Below are positions 32,300-45,602 of a DNA stretch of 64,000 nucleotides, piece after piece. Location of the stretch: assembly GCA_027021705.1 (NCBI GenBank), contig JALUTT010000152.1:22109-86108 (forward strand), given 5' to 3'. Under the pieces are notes generated by a model. That model was not told the DNA's origin, made no database searches, and saw only the letters and a program-made list of their open reading frames with translations. How positions within the stretch are numbered: position 1 is the first letter of the stretch; each line of letters starts with the position of its first letter. The position numbers and the translations under genes were made by a program. This DNA is from Anaerolineae bacterium. GTDB lineage: Bacteria > Chloroflexota > Anaerolineae > S140-20.

Positions 32300-33037
32300 A
32301 TGAAGGAGCGAACGGGCTGGAGCTGGAGTCTGGGGGGCTCCGTGATCGCCAGTCTCTGCTGCTTTGGGCCGGCGGTGGCCGCCCTCGTCGGCGTCGGTGG
32401 GGCCTCATTCCTGCTGGGCCTGACGCGCTACCGGCTGCCGCTGCTGATCATCGGCCTGGGCTTCGCCCTCCTGGGGGTGGGCATGGCCCTGCGCCAGAGC
32501 GCCCGGACTTGTGACCGGGAGCAGCACCGGCGCAACCTGTGGCGCTTCCCCACGGTGACGCTGATCACCTTTGTGGCGACCTATGGTCTGCTGACCTACG
32601 TCTTTCCCGTGGCCGTCTACAACGTCCTGGGGGCTACGTCGGGGATCCGGGAAGTACGGTCGGAGCGTCCGGCGGCTCCTGCGCCGGCCTCGCCATCCCA
32701 GCTTCCCGACGATGCCGCGCCGAGCCGCTCCGCCCCGGCGCAGGAGGCCCTGCCGCTGTCGCAGGAAGGGCCGGCGCCGGCAACGCCTACGCCGGAGGCA
32801 GGACTGCGGCGGGTGACCCTGGCCGTCAGCGGGATGACCTGAAGCGGCTGCGTGGCTGCCGTGCGCAGCATCCTCCTGCAGCAGCCGGGCGTCGTCGAGG
32901 CCGGGGCCGACTTGCGGCGACAGCAGGGATGGGCGGTCTACGACCCGGCCCGGATCGCGCCCCAGGATCTGGCCGATGCCCTCTCGCCCTACTATCCGAG
33001 CCGGGTGGTCGAAGACCGGCCCTACACAGAGCAGTGA
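32300..33037 (+). CDS. MerT-like transporter fused to an HMA domain; predicted selenoprotein (UGA 32840-32842 = Sec)
   Basis: ASLCCFGP TM motif. ORFs 32294-32842 and 32852-33037 are in frame; the junction reads GGG ATG ACC TGA AGC GGC TGC = GMT-U-SG-C, followed by HMA-like ..PGVVEA...WAVYDP. Confidence 0.8.
32845..32887 (+). promoter_or_regulatory. Candidate bacterial SECIS element
   Basis: Upper stem GCTGC-CGTGC-GCAGC (32855-32869) with loop 17 nt after UGA and G at loop position 2; lower stem CGGCTGC/GCAGCCG. Confidence 0.5.
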
Positions 33038-33050
33038 GCGAGGAGGAAAG

Positions 33051-33386
33051 ATGTCCGACGTGACGACCAAGCTGATCGTTCGCGCCCCGGCGGCGACGGA
33101 GACGAAGGTCTACCTGACGCCGGAGGTGGAGAAGAACCTGGATGTCCGGCTGGCCCGCATCGAGGGGCACGTCCGCTCCATCCGCCGGATGCTGGCGGAA
33201 CATCAGGACTGCAATAGCCTGCTGATCCAGATGGCGGCGGTCCGGGCGGCGATGACCCAGGCGATGGCCAAGCTGCTGGAAGGGCACATCGAGACTTGCG
33301 TGACCGAGTGCGTGGCGACCGAGGAAGGGGCAGATGCCCTGGCCGGCCTGAAGAAGGCCCTGGCCATCGTGCTCAAGAGCACGTAG
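33051..33386 (+). CDS. CsoR/RcnR family metal-sensing repressor
   Basis: RLARIEGHVRSIRRM..DC..LLIQMAAVRAA..LLEGHIETCV (C-H-C ligands); RBS GAGGAGG. Confidence 0.9.
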   Translation: MSDVTTKLIVRAPAATETKVYLTPEVEKNLDVRLARIEGHVRSIRRMLAEHQDCNSLLIQMAAVRAAMTQAMAKLLEGHIETCVTECVATEEGADALAGLKKALAIVLKST

Positions 33387-33474
33387 GGCGGTCGGCGGGC
33401 GACGAGGGGCGGGGGTACCGGTGAGCGGATCGGCGGGGCTGATCTATCAGGAGGGGCTTGCTAGGGAAAGACAA

Positions 33475-33536
33475 CCGCGCTGAGGGAGCCGCGGGGCCGA
33501 TTCTGGGAACCCGAAGGCCCTCGCTTCTCAGCGCGG
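33475..33536. terminator. Long hairpin between convergent genes (bidirectional terminator or REP-like)
   Basis: CCGCGCTGAG...CTCAGCGCGG outer stem with inner GGGCC/GGCCC pairing. Confidence 0.5.
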
Positions 33537-33572
33537 AAGGGTCGCATTGGATTGGCCTTTCTGTGGCTTCGG

Positions 33573-34019
33573 TTAGGCGGGAGCCTCCTCGGTCCCTGCC
33601 TTTTCCCCTTCAGCTTTGCTTATCAGTTCCTCGCGCTTGCGGGCGGCTGCCTTCTTGCCCTCCTCGATGGCCTCCTGGACCCGCTCCTTCTGCTGCTGGA
33701 CGACGATCTTACCCCGTTCCTGGACCTCCTCGACGCGCTGGCGGGCTTCGGTGGCCAGTTCCTCGGCCTTCTGACGGGCTTCGGCTGCCGCTTCCTCGGC
33801 CCGTTTGCGGGCCTCGGCCGCCGCCTCTTCAGCCCGCTTGCGGGCCTCTTCTTTCAGCGTTTCCGCCCGGGTGCGGAGTTCGATGCTGCGCTCCCGCAGG
33901 CGGGCCCGAGTTTCCTCCCCTGACTGAGGGGCCAGGATCAACGCTGTGGCTGCCCCTACCAGCGCTCCCACCACGAAGCCGGCCAGAAAGGCTCCGACAT
34001 CTCCCGTATGCTCACTCAT
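33573..34019 (-). CDS. YtxH-domain protein
   Basis: FLAGFVVGALVGAATALILAPQSGEETR followed by an A/E/K/R coiled coil. Confidence 0.88.
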   Translation of the reverse strand: MSEHTGDVGAFLAGFVVGALVGAATALILAPQSGEETRARLRERSIELRTRAETLKEEARKRAEEAAAEARKRAEEAAAEARQKAEELATEARQRVEEVQERGKIVVQQQKERVQEAIEEGKKAAARKREELISKAEGEKAGTEEAPA

Positions 34020-34039
34020 TGTACACCTCCTGTTCGCTC

Positions 34040-34294
34040 TCACGAGTAAGTCCGGTCTCCCACGGTCATCCTGTCCATAGGGCGGAGCAAGGCGATGGGC
34101 ACCATCTCCGCCAAAGTAGGCGTATAGAAGGATATGTAAAGGGTGTCGCTTAGTTCGTCATAATCTAGAACAAATGTTTCGTCGTTCATCTCTGGGTGGT
34201 TGGTAGGAGCTGTAATGTGCTCCCACCGTTCATAAGTGAGATAAATTGCATTGCCGTAACGGTCATAAACCGTCCATCGTCGCCCGCCGGTCAT
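34040..34294 (-). pseudogene. Collapsed toxin-antitoxin remnant: toxin-like N-terminus joined to a DUF2283-like fragment
   Basis: AT-richer segment; DRYGNAIYLTYERWEHI...HPEM, then LDYDELSDTLYISF, then unrelated sequence. Confidence 0.5.
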
Positions 34295-34331
34295 AGGCTT
34301 CCTGCGGTTCTGGGGGTGGGCGGTTGCGATG

Positions 34332-34751
34332 TTACTTGCGGCGAGGGGCGAGGCGGATGAGGACTTGGAGGGCCCGGCGTGCCCCCGCCGCGTAGCTGGC
34401 GGCCGTGATGGCGGGAGAGGTGACCTGCCGGCTGACGAACTCGGTGGTCCCTTTCACCGTGTTCAAGGTCTCATTCGTCGTGCGCAGGATCGGTCGGACC
34501 TCCTCGCGCAGCATCCGAGTCAGCGTCCAGAGCTGGTAGACCAGGATGGCCAGCAGGGTGAGGATAATCAGGCTTTCCACCGCCAGCACGATGATGAAGA
34601 GGTCGCGGATGGTCGCCGTCGTCTCCGGGTGGCCCAAGAGGAAGATCACCCCCAAGACCAGCAGGATCAAAGCGACGACGACGGCGAGGATGATCCAGGT
34701 CTTGAGAGGGATGCGCCGTTTTTTGCCTTGGGAGGAATTTCGCTCATTCAT
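34332..34751 (-). CDS. Membrane protein (DUF948-like)
   Basis: Two TM segments then EVRPIL..TNETLNTVKGTTEFVS; adjacent to the YtxH gene. Confidence 0.65.
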   Translation of the reverse strand: MNERNSSQGKKRRIPLKTWIILAVVVALILLVLGVIFLLGHPETTATIRDLFIIVLAVESLIILTLLAILVYQLWTLTRMLREEVRPILRTTNETLNTVKGTTEFVSRQVTSPAITAASYAAGARRALQVLIRLAPRRK

Positions 34752-34763
34752 AGTTTCATTATA

Positions 34764-35024
34764 TCACGATTTCGTGAAAATCGCAACCAAAAACGCGAGC
34801 ATTACGGCACCCAATCCTCCTGCCAGCACCTGCAGGGGGCCGATGCGCCCCAGGGAGACCGCCATCGCCTGTCCCAAGAAGTGCCCCAGGGCGAAGCCGA
34901 CCCACGCCGCGACGGTGCGGTAGAGCAGGAGGCGACCTCCCCCCCGGCGGAGCAGGTGGATGACCGCCGCCAGGAGGGTGGAGAGCACAAAAGCCAGAAC
35001 CAGAGATGGAGGCAGTGGAAGCAT
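34764..35024 (-). CDS. Small membrane protein
   Basis: Three hydrophobic segments; GGAG RBS; lies in the operon. Confidence 0.65.
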   Translation of the reverse strand: MLPLPPSLVLAFVLSTLLAAVIHLLRRGGGRLLLYRTVAAWVGFALGHFLGQAMAVSLGRIGPLQVLAGGLGAVMLAFLVAIFTKS

Positions 35025-35038
35025 AGCTCCGCCGGGAT

Positions 35039-36145
35039 TCAGCGCGTGATGATGCCACCCCCCAGCACCTCATCGTCCTGGTAGAAGACGATGCTCTGGC
35101 CGGGTGTGACGCCCCGCTGGGGCTCGTCGAACCGGACCTCCACGTCGCCGTCCGGGAGCGGGATGACGGTGACCGGCGTCTCGGGGGCCCGGTAGCGGAT
35201 CTGGGCCTGGGCCCGAAAGGGAGCCTCGGGGGCCTGACCGCGGATCCAGTGGACCTGGGTCGCCCGGCAGGTGCGTCGCCGGAGCGCCTCGGCCGGCCCC
35301 ACGATGAGGGCGTTCTCCGCCGGGTCCAGGGCCACGACGTAGAGGGGCTGTGGGGCCTCGCCGGGCCGGCCCGGTCGGGCGGTGAGGCCGAGCCCCTTCC
35401 GCTGCCCGACGGTGTAGAAGGGCAGCCCCCGGTGTTCCCCCAGCACCCGGCCGGCCAGGTCACGGATGGGGCCGGGGCGGATCGTCTCCGGGGCCTGGCG
35501 CTGGAGGAAGCGGCGGTAGTCCTCGTCGGCGACGAAGCAGAGGTCCTGACTCTCCGCCCGCTCGGCCACAGGCAGCCCCATCTCGCGGGCCATCTGGCGC
35601 ACCCGGGCTTTGGTGTAGCTCCCCACCGGGAAGAGGGTGTGGGCCAGCGCGTGCTGGTCCAGCCGGTAGAGGGCGTAGGACTGGTCCTTGGGCCGGTCCA
35701 CGCCCCGCAGCAGGCGGTAGGTGCCGCCCTCGTGGCGGATGCGGGCGTAGTGGCCGGTGGCCAGGTAGTCGGCCCCCAGGGCCAGGGCTCGGTTCAGGAG
35801 CCAGCCGAAGCGGATCCGCTGGTTGCAGAGGATGCAGGGATTGGGCGTGCGGCCGGCCGCGTACTCGGCGATGAAGTAGGCGACCACCTCCCGACGGAAG
35901 CGCTCGGCGACGTTGACCAGGTGGAAGGGGATCTCCAGGATGTCGGCCACCCGCTGGGCGACGTACTGGGCGTCCAGCGTGCAGCAACGGTTGGCCGGCC
36001 CCTGTCCGTTGTCGGCCTCGCTCCAGAGGCGGAGCATCATCCCGATGACCTGATGCCCCTGCCGGACCAGGAGGGCCGCGGCCACCGAACTGTCTACGCC
36101 GCCGCTCATGGCGACGACGATCCGTCGTCGCTCCTGAGAGGTCAC
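35039..36145 (-). CDS. mnmA: tRNA 2-thiouridylase MnmA
   Basis: AMSGGVDSS, GRTPNPCILCN, ATGHYA, KDQSY, ESQDLCF, YTVGQRKG and TPGQS motifs; GTG 36145. Confidence 0.96.
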   Translation of the reverse strand: MTSQERRRIVVAMSGGVDSSVAAALLVRQGHQVIGMMLRLWSEADNGQGPANRCCTLDAQYVAQRVADILEIPFHLVNVAERFRREVVAYFIAEYAAGRTPNPCILCNQRIRFGWLLNRALALGADYLATGHYARIRHEGGTYRLLRGVDRPKDQSYALYRLDQHALAHTLFPVGSYTKARVRQMAREMGLPVAERAESQDLCFVADEDYRRFLQRQAPETIRPGPIRDLAGRVLGEHRGLPFYTVGQRKGLGLTARPGRPGEAPQPLYVVALDPAENALIVGPAEALRRRTCRATQVHWIRGQAPEAPFRAQAQIRYRAPETPVTVIPLPDGDVEVRFDEPQRGVTPGQSIVFYQDDEVLGGGIITR

Positions 36146-36147
36146 CT

Positions 36148-37338
36148 TCAGCTTCCCCCCGGTGCCCCGATGGGGCTCATCTCCCGCAGCCGTTCGACCA
36201 GGGGGGGCAGGACCTCCAGCACGGCGTCCACATCCTCCTCCCGGTTCTGGTGGCCGAAGGTGAAGCGGAGTCCGCCGACGCCCCACTCGTAGGGGAGCCC
36301 CATCGCCTGCAGGACGGAGGAGGGCTCAGGATCGCCCGTTGTGCAGGCGGAGCCGGTGCTGGCAGCGATCCCCTCCAGGTCCAGTCCCAGCAGCAGGGCT
36401 TCCCCATCCACACCCCGGATGGCGAAGCTGGCGTTGTGGGGCAGCCGCTGGGTGGGGTGGCCGGTCAACTGGATGTCAGGGATGCGCTCCAGCAGCCCTT
36501 CGATGAGCCGGTCGCGCAGGCGGCGCAGCCGGGCGTTCTCCTCCTCCCGGTTGGTCCGGGTGAGGCGCAGGGCGGTGGCCAGGCCGACGATGCCGGCGAC
36601 GTTGACGGTGCCGGGCCGGTGCCCCCGCTCGTGGCCGCCGCCGGTCAGGGCCGGGACCAGCTTGGTCCCCCGCCGGACGTAGAGGACGCCGACGCCCTTG
36701 GGGCCGTAGAATTTGTGGGCAGAGAGGGCCAGCAGGTCCACGTTCAGGGCCTGCACGTCCAGGTCGAGGGTGCCGCCGGCCTGCACCGCGTCGGTGTGGA
36801 AGGGGATCTGGTGCTCGCGGGCGATGCGACCGATCTCGGCGATGGGCTGGATGGTGCCGACCTCGTTGTTGGCGTACATCACGCTGATGAGGATGGTCTC
36901 CTTGCGCAGGGCGGCCCGCACGTCGTCGGGGTCCACCATCCCGTAGCGGTCCACGGGCAGAAAGGTGACCTCGAAGCCGAAGAGGTCCCGGAGCTGCTCG
37001 GCGGTGTGGCTGACGGCGTGGTGTTCGATGGCGGTGGTGATGATGTGGTGGCCCCGGCCGGCCTTGCGGGCGGCCCAGGCGATCCCCCGCAGGGCCAGGT
37101 TGTCCGACTCGGTGCCGCAACTGGTGAAGACGATCTCGGTGGGGTGGCAGTTCAGCTCGGCGGCCACTTGGGCGCGGGCCTCCTCCAGGGCACGGGCGGC
37201 CTGCCGGCCGAATTCGTGCAGGGAGGCGCTGTTCCCGTAGATCTCGTTCCAGTAGGGGGCCATCGCTTCGACCACCCGGGGGTCCACCGGTGTCGTCGCC
37301 GCGTGGTCCAGGTAGATCCGTCGTCGGGTCTTCATCAC
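36148..37338 (-). CDS. iscS: Cysteine desulfurase (IscS/NifS)
   Basis: YLDHAATTP, NNEVGT, HTDAVQ, SAHKFYGPKG and STGSAC motifs. Confidence 0.93.
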   Translation of the reverse strand: MMKTRRRIYLDHAATTPVDPRVVEAMAPYWNEIYGNSASLHEFGRQAARALEEARAQVAAELNCHPTEIVFTSCGTESDNLALRGIAWAARKAGRGHHIITTAIEHHAVSHTAEQLRDLFGFEVTFLPVDRYGMVDPDDVRAALRKETILISVMYANNEVGTIQPIAEIGRIAREHQIPFHTDAVQAGGTLDLDVQALNVDLLALSAHKFYGPKGVGVLYVRRGTKLVPALTGGGHERGHRPGTVNVAGIVGLATALRLTRTNREEENARLRRLRDRLIEGLLERIPDIQLTGHPTQRLPHNASFAIRGVDGEALLLGLDLEGIAASTGSACTTGDPEPSSVLQAMGLPYEWGVGGLRFTFGHQNREEDVDAVLEVLPPLVERLREMSPIGAPGGS

Positions 37339-37724
37339 GGCTCGTCCTGCTCCTTTGTTTGGAGTTTCTGCCGGGCGAATGCCAGAAACTCCCGCACGGC
37401 TTTCTCCGGCTGCTTGCTAAGATGGCTTTCCGTCACGTGGTCCTCACGGCCGTTGTGAAAGTGATGCGGAAAGGTGCTGACAGACTCCCATCGCTTATGG
37501 GGGGCATTATCGTGGCGGTAGATCGTGCCATCAATGGCTTGTCGTTCCCAGTGATAACTGTATCGTCCAAGCAGTTTCAACGAGAACCAGATGTCTATGA
37601 AGCTACCATCTACGAGGATGATGCGGAGCTCGTTGACATCAGGTGTGAAGGTTTCCACAACGATGTCGGCGAACTCTAGTTCAGCGATCTCCCGGAGTCT
37701 TTCAATGTCTACTAGGTTCATCAA
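37335..37724 (-). CDS. TumE/DUF6516-like putative toxin
   Basis: YSYHW..IYRHDNAPH..STFPHHFH; lower GC than flanks. Confidence 0.72.
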   Translation of the reverse strand: MMNLVDIERLREIAELEFADIVVETFTPDVNELRIILVDGSFIDIWFSLKLLGRYSYHWERQAIDGTIYRHDNAPHKRWESVSTFPHHFHNGREDHVTESHLSKQPEKAVREFLAFARQKLQTKEQDEP

Positions 37725-38010
37725 AGGCCTCGAGGAGTTTGAGAAGGCGATCTCGCTTGTACTCTAAGTGGTCTAGGCGTTGCAGGTCTCGCCAGCTATC
37801 GGCTTCCTCGAGAGTGCCATTCCGATAACGGGCTTCCATATCTTCGACGCTTGAAACTCCGTAACGGCCAATGATCTGAAATATCTCAGCCCTGACTTGC
37901 CGAAGTTGGTGCTCCAAGAGAGTTCGCAACCCCTGTCTTAGCGCGTCCTCTTCGGAGATATGGAGCTCTTGGGCTACGGCCTTTAGCATCGTCTGGGTTT
38001 TGGGCGTCAT
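37702..38010 (-). CDS. Putative antitoxin partner
   Basis: RYGVSSVEDM..GTLEE..WRDLQRLDHLE; overlaps the toxin-like gene; same lower GC. Confidence 0.62.
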   Translation of the reverse strand: MTPKTQTMLKAVAQELHISEEDALRQGLRTLLEHQLRQVRAEIFQIIGRYGVSSVEDMEARYRNGTLEEADSWRDLQRLDHLEYKRDRLLKLLEAFDEPSRH

Positions 38011-38102
38011 AAGACGTTCCTCGCTAGTTCAAGGAGCTTTTCCTTCGTGGTCCTGGAGTATTCTAGCATGGAGGGCGGAGGGCGTCAACGGACGGCAGCA
38101 CC

Positions 38103-38585
38103 TCACGAAGCGCTGGCCATCTCCCGCAGGGCCTGAAGGGCCAGGCGGACGCTGTCGTCCGGGCGCACCCGCACCCGCCGGTCCACGATGCGCCCCTCCT
38201 CGTCAATGACGAAGTGGCTGCGCAGCACGCCCATATAGGTCCGCCCGAAGCTCTTCTTCTCCCCCCACACGCCGTACTTCTCGGCGATGGCGTGATCCTC
38301 GTCCACCAGCAGGTGGAAGGGGAGGTCGTGCTTTGCCCTGAACTTCTGGTGGCTTGCCTGTCCGTCGGGGCTGACACCCAGGACGACGGCGTTGAGGGCC
38401 GTCAGCTCGTCGTAGTGGTCTCGAAAGCCCACCGCCTGCCGGGTGCAGCCGGGGGTGTTGTCCTTGGGGTAGAAGTAGAGGACGACGCGCTTGCCTCGGA
38501 AATCGCTCAGCCGCACGGTCTCGCCCGTGTCGGTGAGCGCCTCGAAGTCCGGGGCCAGATCGCCGATCTCGGGTTGGGTGGTCAT
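38103..38585 (-). CDS. bcp: Peroxiredoxin BCP/PrxQ
   Basis: YFYPKDNTPGCT, GVSPD and RSHFVIDEEG motifs. Confidence 0.93.
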   Translation of the reverse strand: MTTQPEIGDLAPDFEALTDTGETVRLSDFRGKRVVLYFYPKDNTPGCTRQAVGFRDHYDELTALNAVVLGVSPDGQASHQKFRAKHDLPFHLLVDEDHAIAEKYGVWGEKKSFGRTYMGVLRSHFVIDEEGRIVDRRVRVRPDDSVRLALQALREMASAS

Positions 38586-38641
38586 CGCTCCCTCCTGTGG
38601 TCAGGTCTCTCCGGTACGGATGGGTCCGGGGGATGAGGGGC

Positions 38642-39487
38642 TTATGCCCGCAGGCTGCGCAGGACCCGCAGGTTCTCGATGTCCTCGTGCAGGTCGGCGC
38701 TCTTGGGCGTCTCCAGCAGGCCCGGCAGCTCGGCCAGCCGCTCGTCGTTCAGCAGGAGCCGGAAAGCCTCCAGCCCCAGCTTCCCCTGGCCGATGTGAGC
38801 GTGGCGGTCCTTGCGGGAGCCCAGGTCTCCCTTGCTGTCGTTCAGGTGGACGACTTTCAGCCGCTCCAGGCCGATGATGGCGTCGAAGGCGTCCATCGTC
38901 TCCCGGTAGCCTTCGGGGGTGCGGATCTCGTAGCCGGCGGCGAAGACGTGGCAGGTGTCGTAGCAGACGCCCAACCGCTCCCCCTGGGGCGTGTTCTCCA
39001 ACAGCCAGGCCAGGTGCTCGAAGCGGTAGCCCAGGTTCGTCCCCTGGCCGGCCGTCGTCTCCAGGAGGATTTGGGTCTTGTAGCCGGGCGTCTGCTCGTG
39101 GACCCAGCCCAGGGCTTCGGCCACCCGGGCCAGCCCTGCCTCCTCGCCGCTTCCCGTGTGGGAGCCGGGGTGGAGCACCAGGTAGGGCACCCCCAGCACC
39201 TCGCTGCGCTGGACTTCGTCCAGCAGGGCCTCCCGGGATTTCAGCCACAGCTCCTCCTGGGGCGTTCCCAGGTTGATCAGGTAGGCGGCGTGGGCGACCA
39301 CCGGGTAGATGTCGCCCCGGGCGGCCTCTTCGTGGAAGCGCTCGACTTCCTTGGCCGTGTAGGGTTTGCCCTTCCACTGGCGGCTGCTCTTGAGGAAGAT
39401 CTGAATGGCGTCGCAGCCGGCCTTCCGGCCCAGGGCAAAGGCGCGGTAGACGCCGCCGGCGATGGACATGTGGGCACCAAGGCGCAT
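38642..39487 (-). CDS. nfo: Endonuclease IV
   Basis: GAHMSIAGG, HAAYLINL, HPGS, LETTAGQG, DTCH, HLNDSK, DRHAHIG and LETP motifs. Confidence 0.96.
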   Translation of the reverse strand: MRLGAHMSIAGGVYRAFALGRKAGCDAIQIFLKSSRQWKGKPYTAKEVERFHEEAARGDIYPVVAHAAYLINLGTPQEELWLKSREALLDEVQRSEVLGVPYLVLHPGSHTGSGEEAGLARVAEALGWVHEQTPGYKTQILLETTAGQGTNLGYRFEHLAWLLENTPQGERLGVCYDTCHVFAAGYEIRTPEGYRETMDAFDAIIGLERLKVVHLNDSKGDLGSRKDRHAHIGQGKLGLEAFRLLLNDERLAELPGLLETPKSADLHEDIENLRVLRSLRA

Positions 39488-39534
39488 AGAAACCTCCCGG
39501 CGTGTTACGTGTTGCGTGCTGCGGATGGAGCAGG

Positions 39535-40368
39535 TCAGGGGAGGGCGGGGCGGGCCTCCCGCTCCACCAATCGGCGGTAGCGAGCCAGCAGTTCCTGCGT
39601 CACCGGGCCCGGCTTCCCCTCCCCGATGGGGGTGTCGTCAATGCGCACCACGGGCATCACCTCGCGGGAGGAGCTGGTGATGAAGGCTTCGTCGAGGGTG
39701 TCCAGTTCCTCCCGGCGGATGGGGCGCAGGCGCACCGGCAGGAGGGGCCGGGCCAGTTCCAGGACGATGGCCCGGGTGATCCCCTCCAGGACCTGGGCGC
39801 CGGCCGTGTAGAGCACCCCCTCCCGGAGGGCGAAAAAGTTGCTGGTGAGCCCCTCCAGGAGCTCCCCCGCCGGCCCCACCCTCAGCGCTTCGTGGATGCC
39901 CGGGGGCAGTTGCTCGTAGACCCGGCGGGAGGGGGCGATGAAGGCGGTCGTCTTGGCGCGGGGGTGCTGGCGCTGCAGGGGCACGGTGGTGCAGGCCACC
40001 CCCTCTTCGTATAGCGATGATGGGTATGGCGCGAAAGGTTCGATCGCCACGTAGAGCTGATGGGGCCGGGCGAAGGTCCAGATCAGCCGCAGGCGGGATT
40101 CGGGGAAGCCGGCCCGTGCCACCGCTGCCGCCAATGCCCGCCGGGCCTCCTGGCGATCCAGCGGACCGTTGTAGCCCAGCAGCCGGGCCGAACGTTCCAG
40201 GCGGTCCAGGTGGGCCTCCAGCCGCAGGAAGCGGTCACCCCCATACGTCCGCATCGTGGTGTAGGCCCCCTGGGGGAGGGCCAGCGTGGCCTCCCGGAGG
40301 GTGCGGGCGGAGGTCGGCAGTTCTACCAGGCCCTGCGGGTCCGCCCGAAACAGGCGCACTTTCGTCAT
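39535..40368 (-). CDS. Aminotransferase class IV family protein
   Basis: GAYTTMR, LEAHLDRLERSA, AKTT, EGLTSNFF, LEGITR and EAFITSSSR motifs. Confidence 0.88.
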   Translation of the reverse strand: MTKVRLFRADPQGLVELPTSARTLREATLALPQGAYTTMRTYGGDRFLRLEAHLDRLERSARLLGYNGPLDRQEARRALAAAVARAGFPESRLRLIWTFARPHQLYVAIEPFAPYPSSLYEEGVACTTVPLQRQHPRAKTTAFIAPSRRVYEQLPPGIHEALRVGPAGELLEGLTSNFFALREGVLYTAGAQVLEGITRAIVLELARPLLPVRLRPIRREELDTLDEAFITSSSREVMPVVRIDDTPIGEGKPGPVTQELLARYRRLVEREARPALP

Positions 40369-40505
40369 CGTCACCTCGTTGTGGTCCCAGGCACTGCCTG
40401 CAAGTATAACACGGAACTCCCCGACTGCCAACGGGAGATTGCCGTTTTTGTAGATACGGAGTATAATTATCCGCCAACCGCCCACGTGATTGAGGAAAGG
40501 GAACG

Positions 40506-40949
40506 ATGATCCTGGAGATACCGACCGAGATTCTGGAGCAGATCCACGCCCACGGCGAGCAAGCCTACCCCGAGGAGGGGGCCGGCCTCCTGCTGGGGAG
40601 GGAGGAGGACGACCGCCGACAGGTGGTGGCCATCCTGACCCTGCCCAACGCCCGCGAGGCCTCCGCTCGCCACCATCGCTACCTGATCACCCCGGAGGAC
40701 ATGCTGCGGGGCGAGCAGGAGGCGATCCGTCGGGGGCTGGACGTGATCGGTGTGTTTCACTCCCATCCCGATCACCCCAGCCGGCCCTCCGACTTCGACC
40801 GTACCTGGGCGTTGCCCTGGTTCTCCTACGTCATCACCAGCGTGCAGCAAGGGCGAGCCGTGGAAAGCCGCTCCTGGCGGCTGTCGGATGACCGGGCGCG
40901 GTTTCTGGAGGAGCAGATCGTGGTGCGCGGGGCGGGGGGTGGGGAGTAA
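40506..40949 (+). CDS. JAB/Mov34 (M67) metallopeptidase, Mec/QbsD-like
   Basis: YPEEGAGLL and FHSHPDHPSRPSDFD (JAMM motif). Confidence 0.92.
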   Translation: MILEIPTEILEQIHAHGEQAYPEEGAGLLLGREEDDRRQVVAILTLPNAREASARHHRYLITPEDMLRGEQEAIRRGLDVIGVFHSHPDHPSRPSDFDRTWALPWFSYVITSVQQGRAVESRSWRLSDDRARFLEEQIVVRGAGGGE

Positions 40950-41028
40950 GGGGCAAGTTGCAAGTTGCAAGGGGCAAGAAGCAAGAACAAGGAGTTAGGT
41001 GCAATCGCCTTGAAGGGAGCCTTTAGAA

Positions 41029-41547
41029 ATGTTTACTAAAACATCACCTCACAAGTATAAAATTCTTTACACTCTGCTTTTGACAATGCTCTCCTCTGTT
41101 GTGCTGCTTAGTGCGTGTGGTCCACGAGAAATAGAACTGCCTTTTGAAACCATTGAGCGATCCAACTATAGCCCGCGATATGAGAAGAAAAAACCAGGGT
41201 TGATGATCATCGCCACCGAAGACGAGATAAACCAATTAATTGGCTTTGTCACCCCTAAAGCAATAAGCCGGTTGCAGGAGATTGATTATAACAAGTACTT
41301 TGTTGTGGTTGCTTTCCTGGGTTGGTATCGCAAAGTCCATGAGGGCATTCGCGTCGAACAAGTTATTTGCCGGAACAATTCAATCTCTATCTATGCGCAG
41401 GTGGGAGAGCTTACGGGTAAAGATGCCATATCTTCTCCTTACCAGGTAATTAAAGTGCAAAAAGTGGGACGATGGGGTGCGGAGATTGATTTCGCTTTGG
41501 TGATTGATAGAAACACGGTAGCATCACAGTCACACTATATTCCCTAA
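41029..41547 (+). CDS. Lipoprotein with PrcB C-terminal-like domain
   Basis: Lipobox LLSAC; VVVAFLG..GIRVEQV..ISSPYQVIKV pattern. Confidence 0.6.
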   Translation: MFTKTSPHKYKILYTLLLTMLSSVVLLSACGPREIELPFETIERSNYSPRYEKKKPGLMIIATEDEINQLIGFVTPKAISRLQEIDYNKYFVVVAFLGWYRKVHEGIRVEQVICRNNSISIYAQVGELTGKDAISSPYQVIKVQKVGRWGAEIDFALVIDRNTVASQSHYIP

Positions 41548-43775
41548 TGCCACACCAAATATCTCAGTATTCTGTAGGGAAGAAAAGGATGAACAGACGA
41601 ATCGCATCTAATATCTTAACAGCTCTTTTTGTCCTCGGCCTTGCGGTTTTTGCTTTCTTCAACCGCCCATCTGCCCGGACGCAAGTCCTCTCGGCCTCTT
41701 TTGACTCGCCGCTAACGATTCCTGAGACGTTCGATTCACCTTTACCTACCCCTACTCCTTCTCCCACACTCTTACGAGGGCCATCAGAGGCGGCTCAGAA
41801 AGCCTTGCATTATATTGCTCAACGTGGAGGTATCTCACCTCAAGAGTTGGTCGTTGTCACTGACCATCCAGCAGTATATCCAAATCTGGGGCGTAAATTC
41901 CAAGTGGTAACGATATTGGACATCAGACCCGAAGGACGATTCTACAGCTTGCTGGTGGACTTGGACAACGGCCATATCGAAGAGGACTTGGCAGCCGTTC
42001 GTGAAGCCGAGGAGAAGGTCTACCTGGACCGCTATGGGAGGTTGGAACCAGCCCTCTACAAGCGGTTGCAGGAGGTTGATGAAGGAGAGGTTTTACCGGT
42101 TGCTATTTGGGTGGCCGGAAAGTCTCAACGCAGCCAGGAAGATCTCTTTACTGCTGTAGCGGCCCGGTTTCCCGAAGCACGGGCGGCGCTAGCTCGTTCC
42201 GGCAAGCCATGGGATGTGGAAGACTCCGAGTTGGCTGCCCGCATCAAGGCCGAATACAACCGGTTAAGTGCAACAAATACGACAGCACGGATTGAGCCGC
42301 TGCTTAGTTATTTGAAGCAGCAGGGAGTCGAAATAAGGACTTATGGCGCATTACCCTCAGTGACGGCCCGGCTGACGAAGCACCAAATACTGGAATTATC
42401 TCGATATGAGGAAGTGGCAGTGATATATCTGATTGAAGAAGAAGGCCATAAAGATTTGGACGTTGCCGTTCCCGCTGGCTTGGTGCCCGTTGTGTGGGAT
42501 CGAGGATTTGACGGTTCCGGAGTTTCCATAGCTATTCTTGAAAGCGGAAATATCGATTCCAACGTAACTTGCCTGAACATATCCGATACGCGAAACTCTC
42601 CTCAAGGTACCGATGCTCATAAGACGCAGGTAGCGGCTATATCTGCCTGTGATCACAATACGTATAGGGGGGTAGCTCCAGGAGCAACATTGTTAGATGC
42701 TGGATTCGATAGGAGTGGTTGGATCACTTCGCAGGAAGATGCCGTTGATGCGCTACGTTGGGCGGTTGAATCACCTTACATGGCATCGGTGGTAAACATA
42801 AGTGAAGGTTGGGAAGAGGATAATTACATACACTGGACTGACCGGGCTTTCGACTACTGGGCGCGTCACGAGTTTGTTTTAATCACCAAGTCGGCCGGAA
42901 ATAGTGGTGATAGCATCACCTCACCGGGCAAAGGGTGGAATCTCTTGACAGTGGGAGGATTTGATGATCATGACACCATTGGATGGGGGGATGATACGAT
43001 ATTTGCCCTCTCCGCATACTCCAATCCAGTAAGCCTAAGCGGGGACCGAGAAAAGCCTGAGATTGTAGCACCTGCTGTAGATATCACAACCATCAGCGCA
43101 GGGAACAATCTTGTAATCGGAACTGGTACCAGCTACGCAGCTCCTCAGGTGGCAGGGCTTGCTGCTTTGTTGATAGACCGGAACAGCGCTTTATCAGCTT
43201 GGCCTGAAGCCATCCGAGCGATCATTATGGCTTCGGCTACTCACAACATAGTCGGCCCAACAGGAATTCCCACAGGGCAGGAATTACAAGATGGTGCCGG
43301 TGCGATCAATGCAGCTTTTGCCGACGATATCGCTCAAAATCGCAATACTTCTCCGACTACCCCCTGCGAGGAATCTTGTTGGTGGGGGGCGGGAACAAGT
43401 GGGGTGTCAGAAGGTGACTATCTGTATCGCTACTTCAATGCGACCGCTGGTCAGTACATTCGCGTTGCTATCTCTTGGTGGTCTCGAGCCGATTCTCCGG
43501 GCAATAATTACACCTTCGACCGCCTGGATACCGACCTGAATCTGGGGGTTCAATACTTCAACGGTAGTTGGTGGGAATGGGTGCCCGGTGCCTGGTCGGC
43601 CAGTTGGGACAATAACTACGAACTGGTGGAGCTTGTCGCGCCGGAGACGGGGAGTTACCGAATTGCTGTGCATAAAGCGCATGTCTACAATAACGAGACA
43701 AGTAACTTTGTCGGGATTGCACTGCTCAAACTGCATCAGGCTTATCTTCCGATAGTAATGAGGAACTATCCTTGA
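41547..43775 (+). CDS. Secreted S8 subtilase with C-terminal YLPIVMR motif
   Basis: IAILESG, AHKTQVA, KSAGN, KPEIVAP, GTSYAAPQVAG and GAGAINA motifs; signal peptide. Start may be 41589. Confidence 0.9.
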   Translation: MPHQISQYSVGKKRMNRRIASNILTALFVLGLAVFAFFNRPSARTQVLSASFDSPLTIPETFDSPLPTPTPSPTLLRGPSEAAQKALHYIAQRGGISPQELVVVTDHPAVYPNLGRKFQVVTILDIRPEGRFYSLLVDLDNGHIEEDLAAVREAEEKVYLDRYGRLEPALYKRLQEVDEGEVLPVAIWVAGKSQRSQEDLFTAVAARFPEARAALARSGKPWDVEDSELAARIKAEYNRLSATNTTARIEPLLSYLKQQGVEIRTYGALPSVTARLTKHQILELSRYEEVAVIYLIEEEGHKDLDVAVPAGLVPVVWDRGFDGSGVSIAILESGNIDSNVTCLNISDTRNSPQGTDAHKTQVAAISACDHNTYRGVAPGATLLDAGFDRSGWITSQEDAVDALRWAVESPYMASVVNISEGWEEDNYIHWTDRAFDYWARHEFVLITKSAGNSGDSITSPGKGWNLLTVGGFDDHDTIGWGDDTIFALSAYSNPVSLSGDREKPEIVAPAVDITTISAGNNLVIGTGTSYAAPQVAGLAALLIDRNSALSAWPEAIRAIIMASATHNIVGPTGIPTGQELQDGAGAINAAFADDIAQNRNTSPTTPCEESCWWGAGTSGVSEGDYLYRYFNATAGQYIRVAISWWSRADSPGNNYTFDRLDTDLNLGVQYFNGSWWEWVPGAWSASWDNNYELVELVAPETGSYRIAVHKAHVYNNETSNFVGIALLKLHQAYLPIVMRNYP

Positions 43776-43808
43776 GGCAAAACAGAGAAGACAGAGAAGA
43801 TGGATTGC

Positions 43809-43890
43809 GCCTAATCCCTCGCTACAGCCGACTGCTCCCTCGGCGGCTTCACCGTCTCGGTCGCAGCGGATGAACTCAATGCTGTTAGGA
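43809..43890 (+). other. attC-like recombination site
   Basis: R'' GCCTAAT, 5-nt spacer, L'' GCTACAGC, CG(A)CTGC/GCAGCG stem, L' GATGAAC, R' GTTAGGA; 82 bp. Confidence 0.72.
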
Positions 43891-43898
43891 GGAGACTG

Positions 43899-44216
43899 AT
43901 GCCAATTCTACGACTTCCTACGCCTTTACGACCCTACGCCGATGGTCAGCGGGAGGTTGCGGTCCAGGGTGAGACGGTGGCCGAGGTTCTCAAGGACCTG
44001 ACGGCCCGTTACCCGGCCCTGCGTCCGCACCTCTTCGACGATGGGGGCGAACTGCGGCCTTTTGTCAACCTCTTTCTGAACGACGAGGACATCCGCTACC
44101 TGCAGGGGGTGGAGACCCGCCTGGAGGAAGGGGATCGTCTGATGATCGTGCCCAGCATTGCCGGCGGCACGAACCGGGAGGGATCCGATGGCTGCGCTAC
44201 CAGAGCTTTCGCGTGA
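43899..44216 (+). CDS. MoaD/ThiS/CysO ubiquitin-like sulfur carrier with a C-terminal extension after GG
   Basis: LPTPLR, FVNLFLNDEDIR and IVPSIAGG, followed by 15 further residues. Confidence 0.9.
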   Translation: MPILRLPTPLRPYADGQREVAVQGETVAEVLKDLTARYPALRPHLFDDGGELRPFVNLFLNDEDIRYLQGVETRLEEGDRLMIVPSIAGGTNREGSDGCATRAFA

Positions 44217-45348
44217 GGAGATCCTGCGCTACTCCCGCCATCTGCTCATCCCTGAGGTAGGGCTGGAGGGGCAGCGCAAGTTGAAGGCGGCTTCTGTGCT
44301 GGTAGTGGGCACGGGGGGGTTGGGCTCTCCCGTCGCCCTCTACCTGGCCGCGGCCGGCGTCGGTCACATTGGCCTGGTGGACTACGACGTGGTGGATGCG
44401 TCCAACCTGCAGCGGCAGGTGATCCACGGTACCTCCCGTCTGGGTGACCTGAAGGTCGAATCGGCCCGGGACCGGCTGCTGGACCTCAATCCCGACATCG
44501 AGGTGGAGATCTACAACGAGGTCCTCACCTCGGAGAACGCGATGCGCATCGCCGAGGGGTACGACATCATCCTTGACGGCACCGACAACTTTCCCACCCG
44601 TTACCTGGTGAACGACCTCTGTGTGCTGACGGGCAAGCCCAACGTCTACGGGTCTATCTTCCGCTTTGAAGGGCAGGTCTCCATCTTCGACGCCCGGCGG
44701 GGTCCTTGCTACCGGTGTCTCTTCCCCGAGCCTCCGCCGCCGGGCATGGTTCCCTCCTGCGCCGAGGGAGGGGTGTTGGGGGTGCTGCCGGGGACCATCG
44801 GGACCCTCCAGGCTACCGAGGCCCTCAAGCTCATCCTGGGCATTGGGACGCCGCTCATTGGGCGGCTCTTGCTCTACGATGCCCTCGATATGTCCTTCGA
44901 GTTCGTCCAGTTGCGCAAGAACCCCCACTGCAAGGTCTGCGGTCCCAACCCCGAGGTGACGGAGCTGATTGACTACGAGGCCTTCTGCGGGATGCCGGCC
45001 CACGACCGGGACGAGGGGACGGCCGGCGCGGGGTGGGACATCGAGCCTCGGGAGCTGGCCGAGCGGCTCAAGCGCGGCGACCGCATCCGGCTGATTGACG
45101 TGCGAGAGCCCCACGAGTTGAAGATCTCCCGGCTGGAGGGTGCGGAGCTGATCCCGCTGGGGCAGTTGGCTGCTCGCCTCTCAGAGCTGGACAGCGCCGA
45201 GGAGATCGTCCTCTTCTGCCGGTCGGGCTCCCGCTCGGCCCGGGCGCTGGAGCTCCTGGTCAGCGCCGGCTTCCGCAAGGTGAAGAACCTCAAGGGCGGG
45301 CTGAACGCCTGGGCCCGCGAAGTGGACCCCAATGTGCCGGTTTACTGA
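44188..45348 (+). CDS. moeB: MoeB/MoeZ adenylyltransferase with rhodanese domain
   Basis: RYSRHL, GTGGLG, SNLQRQ, PCYRC and SCAEGGVLG motifs; rhodanese DVRE..CRSGSRS. Confidence 0.92.
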   Translation: MAALPELSREEILRYSRHLLIPEVGLEGQRKLKAASVLVVGTGGLGSPVALYLAAAGVGHIGLVDYDVVDASNLQRQVIHGTSRLGDLKVESARDRLLDLNPDIEVEIYNEVLTSENAMRIAEGYDIILDGTDNFPTRYLVNDLCVLTGKPNVYGSIFRFEGQVSIFDARRGPCYRCLFPEPPPPGMVPSCAEGGVLGVLPGTIGTLQATEALKLILGIGTPLIGRLLLYDALDMSFEFVQLRKNPHCKVCGPNPEVTELIDYEAFCGMPAHDRDEGTAGAGWDIEPRELAERLKRGDRIRLIDVREPHELKISRLEGAELIPLGQLAARLSELDSAEEIVLFCRSGSRSARALELLVSAGFRKVKNLKGGLNAWAREVDPNVPVY

Positions 45349-45377
45349 CGAGCGGGCGAGAAGCCCTGGATGCCTAT

Positions 45378-45402
45378 GGGACGGCCTTCGGGCCGTCCCT
45401 TT
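45378..45402 (+). terminator. Intrinsic terminator
   Basis: GGGACGGCC-TTCG-GGCCGTCCC followed by TTT. Confidence 0.7.
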
Positions 45403-45448
45403 GCCTTCTTGCCCGGCAGGCTTCTGAACCCCTATGGGACGGGCCGGC

Positions 45449-45481
45449 CATTCGTGCATTTGTGACAATTTATGGACGGCC
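45449..45481. repeat. Fragment of the CACGAAT/ATTCGTG MITE-like family
   Basis: CATTCGTGCATTTGTGACAATTTATGGACGGCC resembles 53777-53809. Confidence 0.6.
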
Positions 45482-45602
45482 AATAAGACGGCCAATAACC
45501 GCCGTTTTTGTGGTACAATGCTTGGTGAGCGCCGCACCCCAGGGACGGCGTCGTCATTCCCAAGAAGCCATTCCAAGAGGTCGTCCAATCAAGGAGAGGA
45601 TT

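Follow-up and report, generated by a model that had tools for sequence, protein, structure and literature searches.

In a 64-kb window of an Anaerolineae (Chloroflexota) genome, the whole stretch of DNA analyzed here, we observed a block of low GC content between the gene for a Prok-JAB peptidase (JAB) and that for a ThiS/MoaD-type sulfur carrier (MoaD). This block is an integron gene cassette of 2890 bp (40995..43884, plus strand), delimited both by homology to a cassette in the array of another genome and by the joint of an empty site in near-identical strains. We consider it very likely that an integron integrase inserted this single cassette off-platform, that is, by recombination between the folded attC site of the circular cassette and a genomic attG site. 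Elements of this kind, a single attC without an integrase (SALIN), are described in parts of a preprint that counts 3400 of them in 2469 RefSeq genomes (10.1101/2022.09.11.507474).

Boundaries, array copy and empty site

The block (40995-43884) has a GC content of 0.50, compared with 0.68 and 0.65 in its flanks and 0.66 for the genome, and contains two co-directional reading frames (41029-41547 and 41547-43775). GC content at third codon positions (GC3) is 0.45 and 0.50 in these two cargo genes versus 0.87 for JAB, 0.71 for MoaD and 0.86 for MoeZ, the gene that follows MoaD. The left crossover triplet G|TT occupies 40994..40996 on the plus strand, with the G deriving from the target and the TT forming bases 1-2 of the cassette. 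The left junction reads G(40994)|TTAGGTGCAATC and the right junction GCTG(43884)|TTAGGAGG. The latter leads into target-derived DNA at 43885..43898 on the plus strand (TTAGGAGGAGACTG), which contains the moaD ribosome-binding site AGGAGG. At the other end of the attC site, GATTGCGCCTAAT (43803-43815) is complementary to the start of the block at 11 of 13 positions, with the remaining two being G-T wobbles on the top strand. The window places 2949 bp between JAB and MoaD; without the cassette, the gap is 59 bp.

The same cassette resides in an attC array of a second Anaerolineae genome, G011. The whole block is found on contig C67 of that genome at 74% DNA identity, and the encoded proteins are 52% identical for a lipoprotein and 79% identical over 564 residues for an S8 subtilase. 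When the genome contig collection was scanned with the S8 protein, this contig was the sole match. There, attC matches of 74.2 bits and 86.4 bits flank the two genes, the contig start truncates a third attC site, and the neighboring cassettes hold two small unannotated frames and another lipoprotein-like frame. Both limits of the homology between the two copies coincide with the G|TT triplets. At the left junction, identity is 7/30 outside and 17/19 from the G onward, and at the right junction it is 52/60 inside, before the GTT, and 11/30 outside. In G011, cassette bases 1-13 complement the 13 bases that end the R'' of the same cassette at 13 of 13 positions, and at one position of this start/R'' pairing both partners have changed between the window and G011 in a compensating manner. 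In its circular form, the G011 attC site folds at -35.9 kcal/mol with a z score of -7.3. The IntI of this genome scores 329 bits against the TIGR02249 cut-off of 265. Each of the five genomes with related attC sites encodes an IntI above that cut-off (329-497 bits), compared with none of 14 control genomes. The cassette comes from a pool common to Anaerolineae integrons.

The uninterrupted target is present in strains that closely resemble the one in the window. X3 and X4 are vent metagenomes that come from a single study other than the source study. In each of these two runs, one Logan contig (likeness threshold of 88) passes straight from 40996 to 43887, leaving out 2890 bp, and the joint's shorter side measures 37 and 49 nt, respectively. 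The joint is ambiguous over 3 letters, as predicted for crossover at G40994|T and G43884|T because TTAGG is shared. The flanking pieces from these runs are ~96-99% identical to the window, with differences of 6/441 up to 11/284. The right junction, with the cassette in place, is also covered by run X2 of another study (43639-44400, 7 differences); the lack of X2 coverage over 41070-43480 supports no conclusion. In the source run, X1, Logan contigs extend across both junctions (40949-43595 and 43566-43935) at an even depth of ~67 over the flanks and the block. The sequence-only reading that preceded this analysis had claimed a 2.9-kb lower-GC block starting at G|TT, an 11/13 match between its start and the reverse complement of the R'' side, and an 82-bp attC-like end, and had predicted that excision would rejoin JAB to MoaD. 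The first three are present as described, with R'' to R' spanning 43809-43890, and the exact 2890-bp skip in X3 and X4 is the predicted empty site.

Two further contigs bear on variation. In X1, a contig with a depth of 6.5 versus ~67 joins 41003 to 43884, skipping 2880 bp and keeping the cassette's first 9 bases plus the G; a scar left by deletion of the cassette, or a variant strain, may account for it. In X3, a 303-nt contig is ~90% identical to 43592-43737, the 3'-terminal part of the S8 gene (15 differences in 146), suggesting a further diverged copy of the cassette in that community.

JAB lies directly upstream of MoaD in 61 of 79 non-self metagenome loci, with a median gap of 20 bp. The gap is 60 bp or less in 45 of these, 61-120 bp in eight, 121-400 bp in seven, and 1307 bp in one. 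As many as 16 of the 18 loci that lack JAB have less than 3.5 kb of sequence upstream of MoaD. The cargo genes were found in none of the 79 loci. In the class-level genomes G015, G016 and G037, JAB abuts MoaD or lies within ~130 bp of it, and in G038 one small unrelated frame stands between them; nothing cassette-like separates the two genes in any of these four relatives. The same-family genomes G001-G003 offered no usable locus. No close relative was found in the genome and metagenome contig collections, where the best MoaD match besides the source contig is 71%.

The attC site and the host integron

The attC site lies at 43809..43890 on the plus strand, with the modeled hairpin formed by the bottom strand, R'' GCCTAAT at 43809-43815 and R' G|TTAGGA at 43884-43890. 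We built a covariance model (R1) from eight attC sites of other genomes, excluding the window site. Its structure comprises an R box of 7 bp and an L box of 16 bp in which two bases are bulged. In the alignment behind R1, pairing covers 84.8% of cells, and compensatory changes occur in 12 of the 23 pairs; this pairing level was reached by none of 500 shuffles, and slid controls gave 24-40%. On the minus strand, the model matches the window site over 43803-43892 and gives it 57.9 bits (E = 5e-11); of the 23 R1 pairs, 19 are standard, and both bulged positions are present. Over 438 kb of unrelated metagenome DNA, taken from JAB-MoaD loci, R1 returned one 26-bit palindrome and no attC site.

The core sequences of attC sites follow the consensus RYYYAAC for R'' and G|TTRRRY for R'. 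The R'' of the window site, GCCTAAT, agrees at six of seven positions, with the final C replaced by T. Its R' matches GTTRRRY at six of seven positions as integrated (GTTAGGA) and at all seven when joined to the cassette's own start (GTTAGGT). The 82-bp element aligns with the attC sites of five other genomes, and in a DNA search of 40 related genomes, the element alone matches G025, G021, G007 and G040 at 77-93%. These related elements combine CTAAC or CCAAC with GTTRGG as cores, and between the cores lie an inner palindrome that is imperfect and a middle section that varies in length. Two of the elements adopt the classical attC hairpin fold (z scores of -7.2 and -4.3). Folded as a single sequence, the window site does no better than its shuffles on either strand (z scores of +0.3 to +0.9). 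This result neither supports nor refutes function, because several same-type sites that reside in arrays are equally weak. A search of the window region against Rfam gave no family match, which carries no weight because textbook attC arrays likewise go unmatched in Rfam.

The cassette is solitary. With filters off, the next R1 match in the 64-kb window scores just 12.8 bits (E of about 1), and on the remaining 22.3 kb of the 86-kb contig (C152) nothing exceeds 14.1 bits. An IntI-family search of the cassette's own genome found no IntI-like match on this contig.

Other contigs of the genome carry attC sites in numbers. R1 finds five at E 0.001 or better at the end of contig C22, four matches on C39, two each on C102 and C83, two to three on C120, and one each on C42 and C36. 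The contigs that bear them have a lower GC content of 0.55-0.60. Among the 14 own-genome sites that we inspected, R'' ends in CTAAC or CCAAC in all 14, and R' is GTTAGG in 12. The best own-genome IntI match is a remnant at C176:3703-4017, which aligns to residues 163-226 (75%) and 346-387 (79%) of the G021 IntI and lacks the 119 residues in between (227-345) as well as the N-terminal part. The remnant adjoins proS and a low-GC stretch (0.515) with a weak attC match of 16 bits at C176:98-231. A 334-residue recombinase on C36 was considered as an IntI and rejected as XerD-like, with its pieces scoring 61 and 42 bits against the cut-off of 265. The sequence-only reading had held that the window contains a single attC site and no intI, and had proposed running an attC model on 43800-43895 and a search for intI and attC sites across the genome. 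The R1 scan and the IntI-family search of the contig bear out the solitary status, the purpose-built model supplies the 57.9-bit match, and the genome contains attC arrays elsewhere with a deleted remnant as its sole intI. The off-platform origin that it had put forward gains support from the attC model, the G011 array copy and the empty site.

A second solitary cassette-like islet is seen on C36 at ~32950-35660, after an asparagine synthase gene. It is ~2.65 kb long with a GC content of 0.55-0.62, holds a lipoprotein-like frame and a 608-residue frame with a Golvesin_C domain, and ends in a single attC match of 48.5 bits. Its edges read GGGGAG|TTAGGT on the left and G|TTAGGT on the right; both contain the GTTAGG motif that is seen in the window.

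Probable origin of the cassette at this site and relation to known systems

Several observations weigh against the reading of the block as a cassette inserted off-platform by an integrase. Four of the 23 R1 pairs are non-standard in the window attC site, and much of the 57.9 bits reflects how closely its sequence resembles six of the model sequences, which are of the same attC type. The site folds weakly, at -12.2 kcal/mol (z score of +0.4) as integrated and -15.0 kcal/mol (z score of -0.65) in circular form. The cores are imperfect, with AAT in R'' where AAC is otherwise invariant and an R' that agrees at 6/7. The empty site consists of one Logan contig in each of two runs from one study, found at a threshold of 88, and the left side of its joint (37-49 nt) is largely a heptamer repeat with ~60 copies in the genome. 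Finally, the assembly, which is 94.9% complete, contains no intact intI that could be named as the inserting enzyme.

The cassette could instead be ancestral and have been lost from the X3 and X4 strains by precise IntI-mediated excision, an account that differs from insertion in direction only. Precise excision would recreate exactly the joint that we observe, and parts of the preprint cited above report that cassettes inserted into a genome are excised at the precise site (10.1101/2022.09.11.507474). The minor X1 contig, which skips 2880 bp and keeps 9 cassette bases, also looks like a secondary loss. Against these points stands the composition of the cargo genes. Their GC3 of 0.45-0.50 is below the 0.71-0.87 of the neighboring genes, and the cassette consequently shows no sign of long residence. 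In addition, a cassette-like insert occurs in 0/79 metagenome loci and 0/4 class-level relatives, and occupancy varies only among strains that are ~96-99% identical. We therefore regard ancestral presence followed by excision as unlikely.

An eroded platform, or a remnant of an attC cluster without an integrase (CALIN), would accord with the several attC clusters and the decayed intI in the genome, as would a piece moved here by rearrangement or by an insertion sequence. Rearrangement and intI loss are indeed listed among the sources of integrase-less attC clusters in parts of Cury et al. 2016 (PMC4889954). Yet the flanks form one conserved three-gene unit with a 59-bp gap once the cassette is removed, the 86-kb contig carries no other attC site, and the empty-site joint removes exactly one cassette. 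The IntI-family search, which gave Xer-type matches elsewhere, gave none on this contig; transposase and insertion sequence families were not searched. We judge such a remnant very improbable. Still harder to credit is an islet acquired horizontally without any integron, whose 3' hairpin is attC-like by coincidence. The lack of a significant fold for the site alone and the lack of an Rfam family match would fit this account, but Rfam also misses textbook attC arrays, an orthologous copy sits in the attC array of an IntI-bearing genome, and the boundaries fall exactly at G|TT with covariation between the start and R''. The account is already contradicted by the G011 array, the G|TT boundaries and the empty-site joint. 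An assembly chimera is the kind of error to consider in a metagenome-assembled genome, particularly with a repeat adjoining the left junction. Contigs from the source run span both junctions, although these are not independent data, and the right junction is also covered in X2, a run of another study; with depth even at ~67, we assign a chimera next to no probability.

Under our preferred reading of an off-platform insertion, the folded attC site of a circular cassette would have recombined with a secondary site, GTTAGGA, which lies 45 bp beyond the stop codon of JAB and immediately precedes the moaD ribosome-binding site. Crossover at G|TT would then have placed 2890 bp into the 59-bp spacer, with the cassette genes reading in the direction of the operon. 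Transcripts started at the JAB promoter would read through into the cargo genes, and only by crossing the cassette would they arrive at moaD-moeZ. The cassette would have been gained recently in this lineage or, less likely, precisely lost from its relatives.

The cassette is probably no longer mobilized by its own genome, because the only detectable host intI is an internally deleted remnant. The AAC>AAT change in R'' may possibly have immobilized it as well. The C-G pair of AAC is invariant in 8/8 model sites, and AAC is found in 14/14 own-genome sites; the four broken pairs of 23, a hairpin weaker than that of the G011 ortholog and the dead host intI point in the same direction. On the other side, one G021 attC site has the same AAT, other array sites fold as weakly, and the window attC site has only three private changes. 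We dropped the idea of excess decay at this site, as its three private changes, all GC>AT, compare with 0 to 10 in six sites of the same type.

The closest counterparts of the window cassette are the SALINs described by Loot et al. (10.1101/2022.09.11.507474). In the parts of that preprint that treat these elements, the attG target consensus is GWT, inserted cassettes are expressed near resident promoters, and excision is possible. The window shares with them one cassette with one attC site and no intI, attI or second attC site nearby, a crossover at G|TT (a GWT site) in ordinary chromosomal DNA, and an orientation and position after a resident promoter that would permit expression of a promoterless cassette. 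It differs from the E. coli and Vibrio assays reported there in being a natural case from an Anaerolineae (Chloroflexota) genome, in a cargo of two genes over 2.9 kb, and in a host intI that is a deleted remnant. The targets also differ in that those of the window and of the C36 islet match the full R'-like core GTTAGG and not GWT alone. GTTAGG accounts for 628 of the 250,215 GWT sites of the genome (0.25%), which suggests, from two sites, a target narrower than GWT.

Sedentary chromosomal integrons and CALINs, as treated in parts of Cury et al. (PMC4889954), share with the window the attC architecture and a common cassette pool, here exemplified by the G011 array copy; the arrays of the window's own genome show CCTAAC...GTTAGG cores. 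In contrast to those systems, the window cassette lies outside any array, within a conserved housekeeping transcription unit. Integrons were already known in Chloroflexi, and isolated attC sites were formerly set aside as possible false positives according to the same source (PMC4889954). The window cassette is chromosomal, belongs to an environmental bacterium and carries a cargo other than a resistance gene. In all three respects it departs from the classical cases of class 1 integron cassettes inserted at secondary GWTMW or GTT-like sites, which were on plasmids and involved resistance cassettes. It resembles those cases in that recombination would have taken place at a core-site-like sequence outside attI.

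Three alleles of the locus appear to exist in the natural population, namely the occupied site, the empty site and the 2880-bp deletion with a 10-nt scar. Since the host intI is dead, segregating alleles would imply an integrase acting in trans or an integrase-independent loss. Whether this Anaerolineae integron lineage both prefers a GTTAGG core over the near-random GWT choice of IntI1 and maintains these three segregating alleles is a joint proposition that we rate as tentative and rather improbable. GTTAGG is rare in this 66% GC genome (628 sites) and can overlap Shine-Dalgarno-like GGAGG. A preference for it, if true, would tend to bring promoterless cassettes to positions just before ribosome-binding sites inside operons, with immediate transcription of the cassette and retention of the ribosome-binding site by the downstream gene.

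Insertion at attG sites has so far been shown mostly in laboratory assays, as far as the relevant parts of the preprint go (10.1101/2022.09.11.507474). The locus described here provides a natural before-and-after pair from a little-studied phylum, with an array copy, a solitary copy in an operon and the uninterrupted site in near-identical strains. It suggests how a surface protease module could be gained without a platform, borrowing its expression from a host operon. It also defines a substrate set, consisting of the attC site, the target and the candidate intact IntI genes of G021 and G040, with which target choice by a non-proteobacterial integrase can be addressed. It is a well-delimited natural case of a process already described, and it leaves the understanding of integron function unchanged.

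Cargo genes and the surrounding operon

The first cargo gene (41029..41547, plus strand) encodes a PrcB_C-like lipoprotein of 172 residues with the lipobox LLSAC, in which A29 and C30 are invariant among its homologs. The protein itself has no Pfam match, with PF14343 (PrcB_C) absent even at an E value of 10. This domain is found in two of its six non-self homologs, and an Atlas cluster lead (score of 0.91, 199 shared features) points to a cluster that is 96% PrcB_C. The second gene (41547..43775, plus strand; likelier start ATG 41589) encodes an S8 subtilase that matches PF00082 with 95.7 bits and subtilases of the PDB with E = 8e-15, and that has an N-terminal hydrophobic anchor or signal and a weak C-terminal PPC-like domain. 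Aligned to solved subtilases, the catalytic His (DAHKT), the Asn (AGNSG) and the Ser (GTSYAAP) are in place. The position of the catalytic Asp is occupied by Glu, with AILESG (~42540-42560) in lieu of IIDTG, and G011 also has Glu (AILEDG). PrcB is the lipoprotein partner of a treponemal subtilase. Given this role, the PF14343 homologs and the Atlas lead, the cargo most likely amounts to a protease at the cell surface and the lipoprotein accessory to it. The window carries an intact S8 frame; the G011 copy requires three frames within its first 180 codons, as a result of either frameshifts or sequencing errors.

The Prok-JAB peptidase gene (40506..40949, plus strand; PF14464, 89 bits) is the first gene of the JAB-MoaD-MoeZ unit, and the gene 5' of it lies on the opposite strand. 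Its product scores 63 bits against the NCBIfam desampylase family, below the family cut-off. The ThiS/MoaD gene (43899..44216, plus strand) encodes a SAMP1-like sulfur carrier, assigned by family profile matches, in which residues 89-90 are GG and a tail of 15 residues follows. A precursor of this form, GG plus a tail, is of the kind trimmed by JAB peptidases. The unit continues with a gene for a MoeB/MoeZ-type adenylyltransferase with a rhodanese domain (ThiF plus rhodanese; 44158..45348, plus strand; alternative start ATG 44188).

A promoter-like TTGCCG-17-TATAAT at 40439..40467 on the plus strand, 5' of JAB, was found by a consensus scan, which does not imply function. The scan gave no other plus-strand promoter-like site in 38000-45600 and hence none in the cassette. 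A terminator-like hairpin follows MoeZ (45378..45399, plus strand). The same signal scan of 38000-45600 gave a second, weak terminator-like match inside the S8 gene (43151-43166; five pairs, three of them G-C) and none at the 3' end of the cassette or in the attC site.

A further low-GC (~0.52) two-gene islet is found at 37335-38010 on the minus strand, with a peroxiredoxin gene on one side and a class-V aminotransferase gene on the other. It encodes a TumE-family toxin (PF20126, 64 bits) and a 102-residue frame upstream of it. We rejected this toxin-antitoxin islet as a second cassette, as it has no attC match and the toxin stop codon abuts the start of the next gene.

Outside the cassette, the JAB-MoaD spacer contains a tandem repeat of the heptamer GCAAGNN (40953..40989, plus strand). 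Arrays of this repeat (GCAAGGG or GCAAGTT) number ~60 genome-wide, occur on both strands and are up to 95 bp long. The GCAAG-rich stretch was considered as an attI-like site and rejected as a generic heptamer repeat. The heptamers also match other contigs of the genome and the Anaerolineae genomes G029, G025, G018 and G028.

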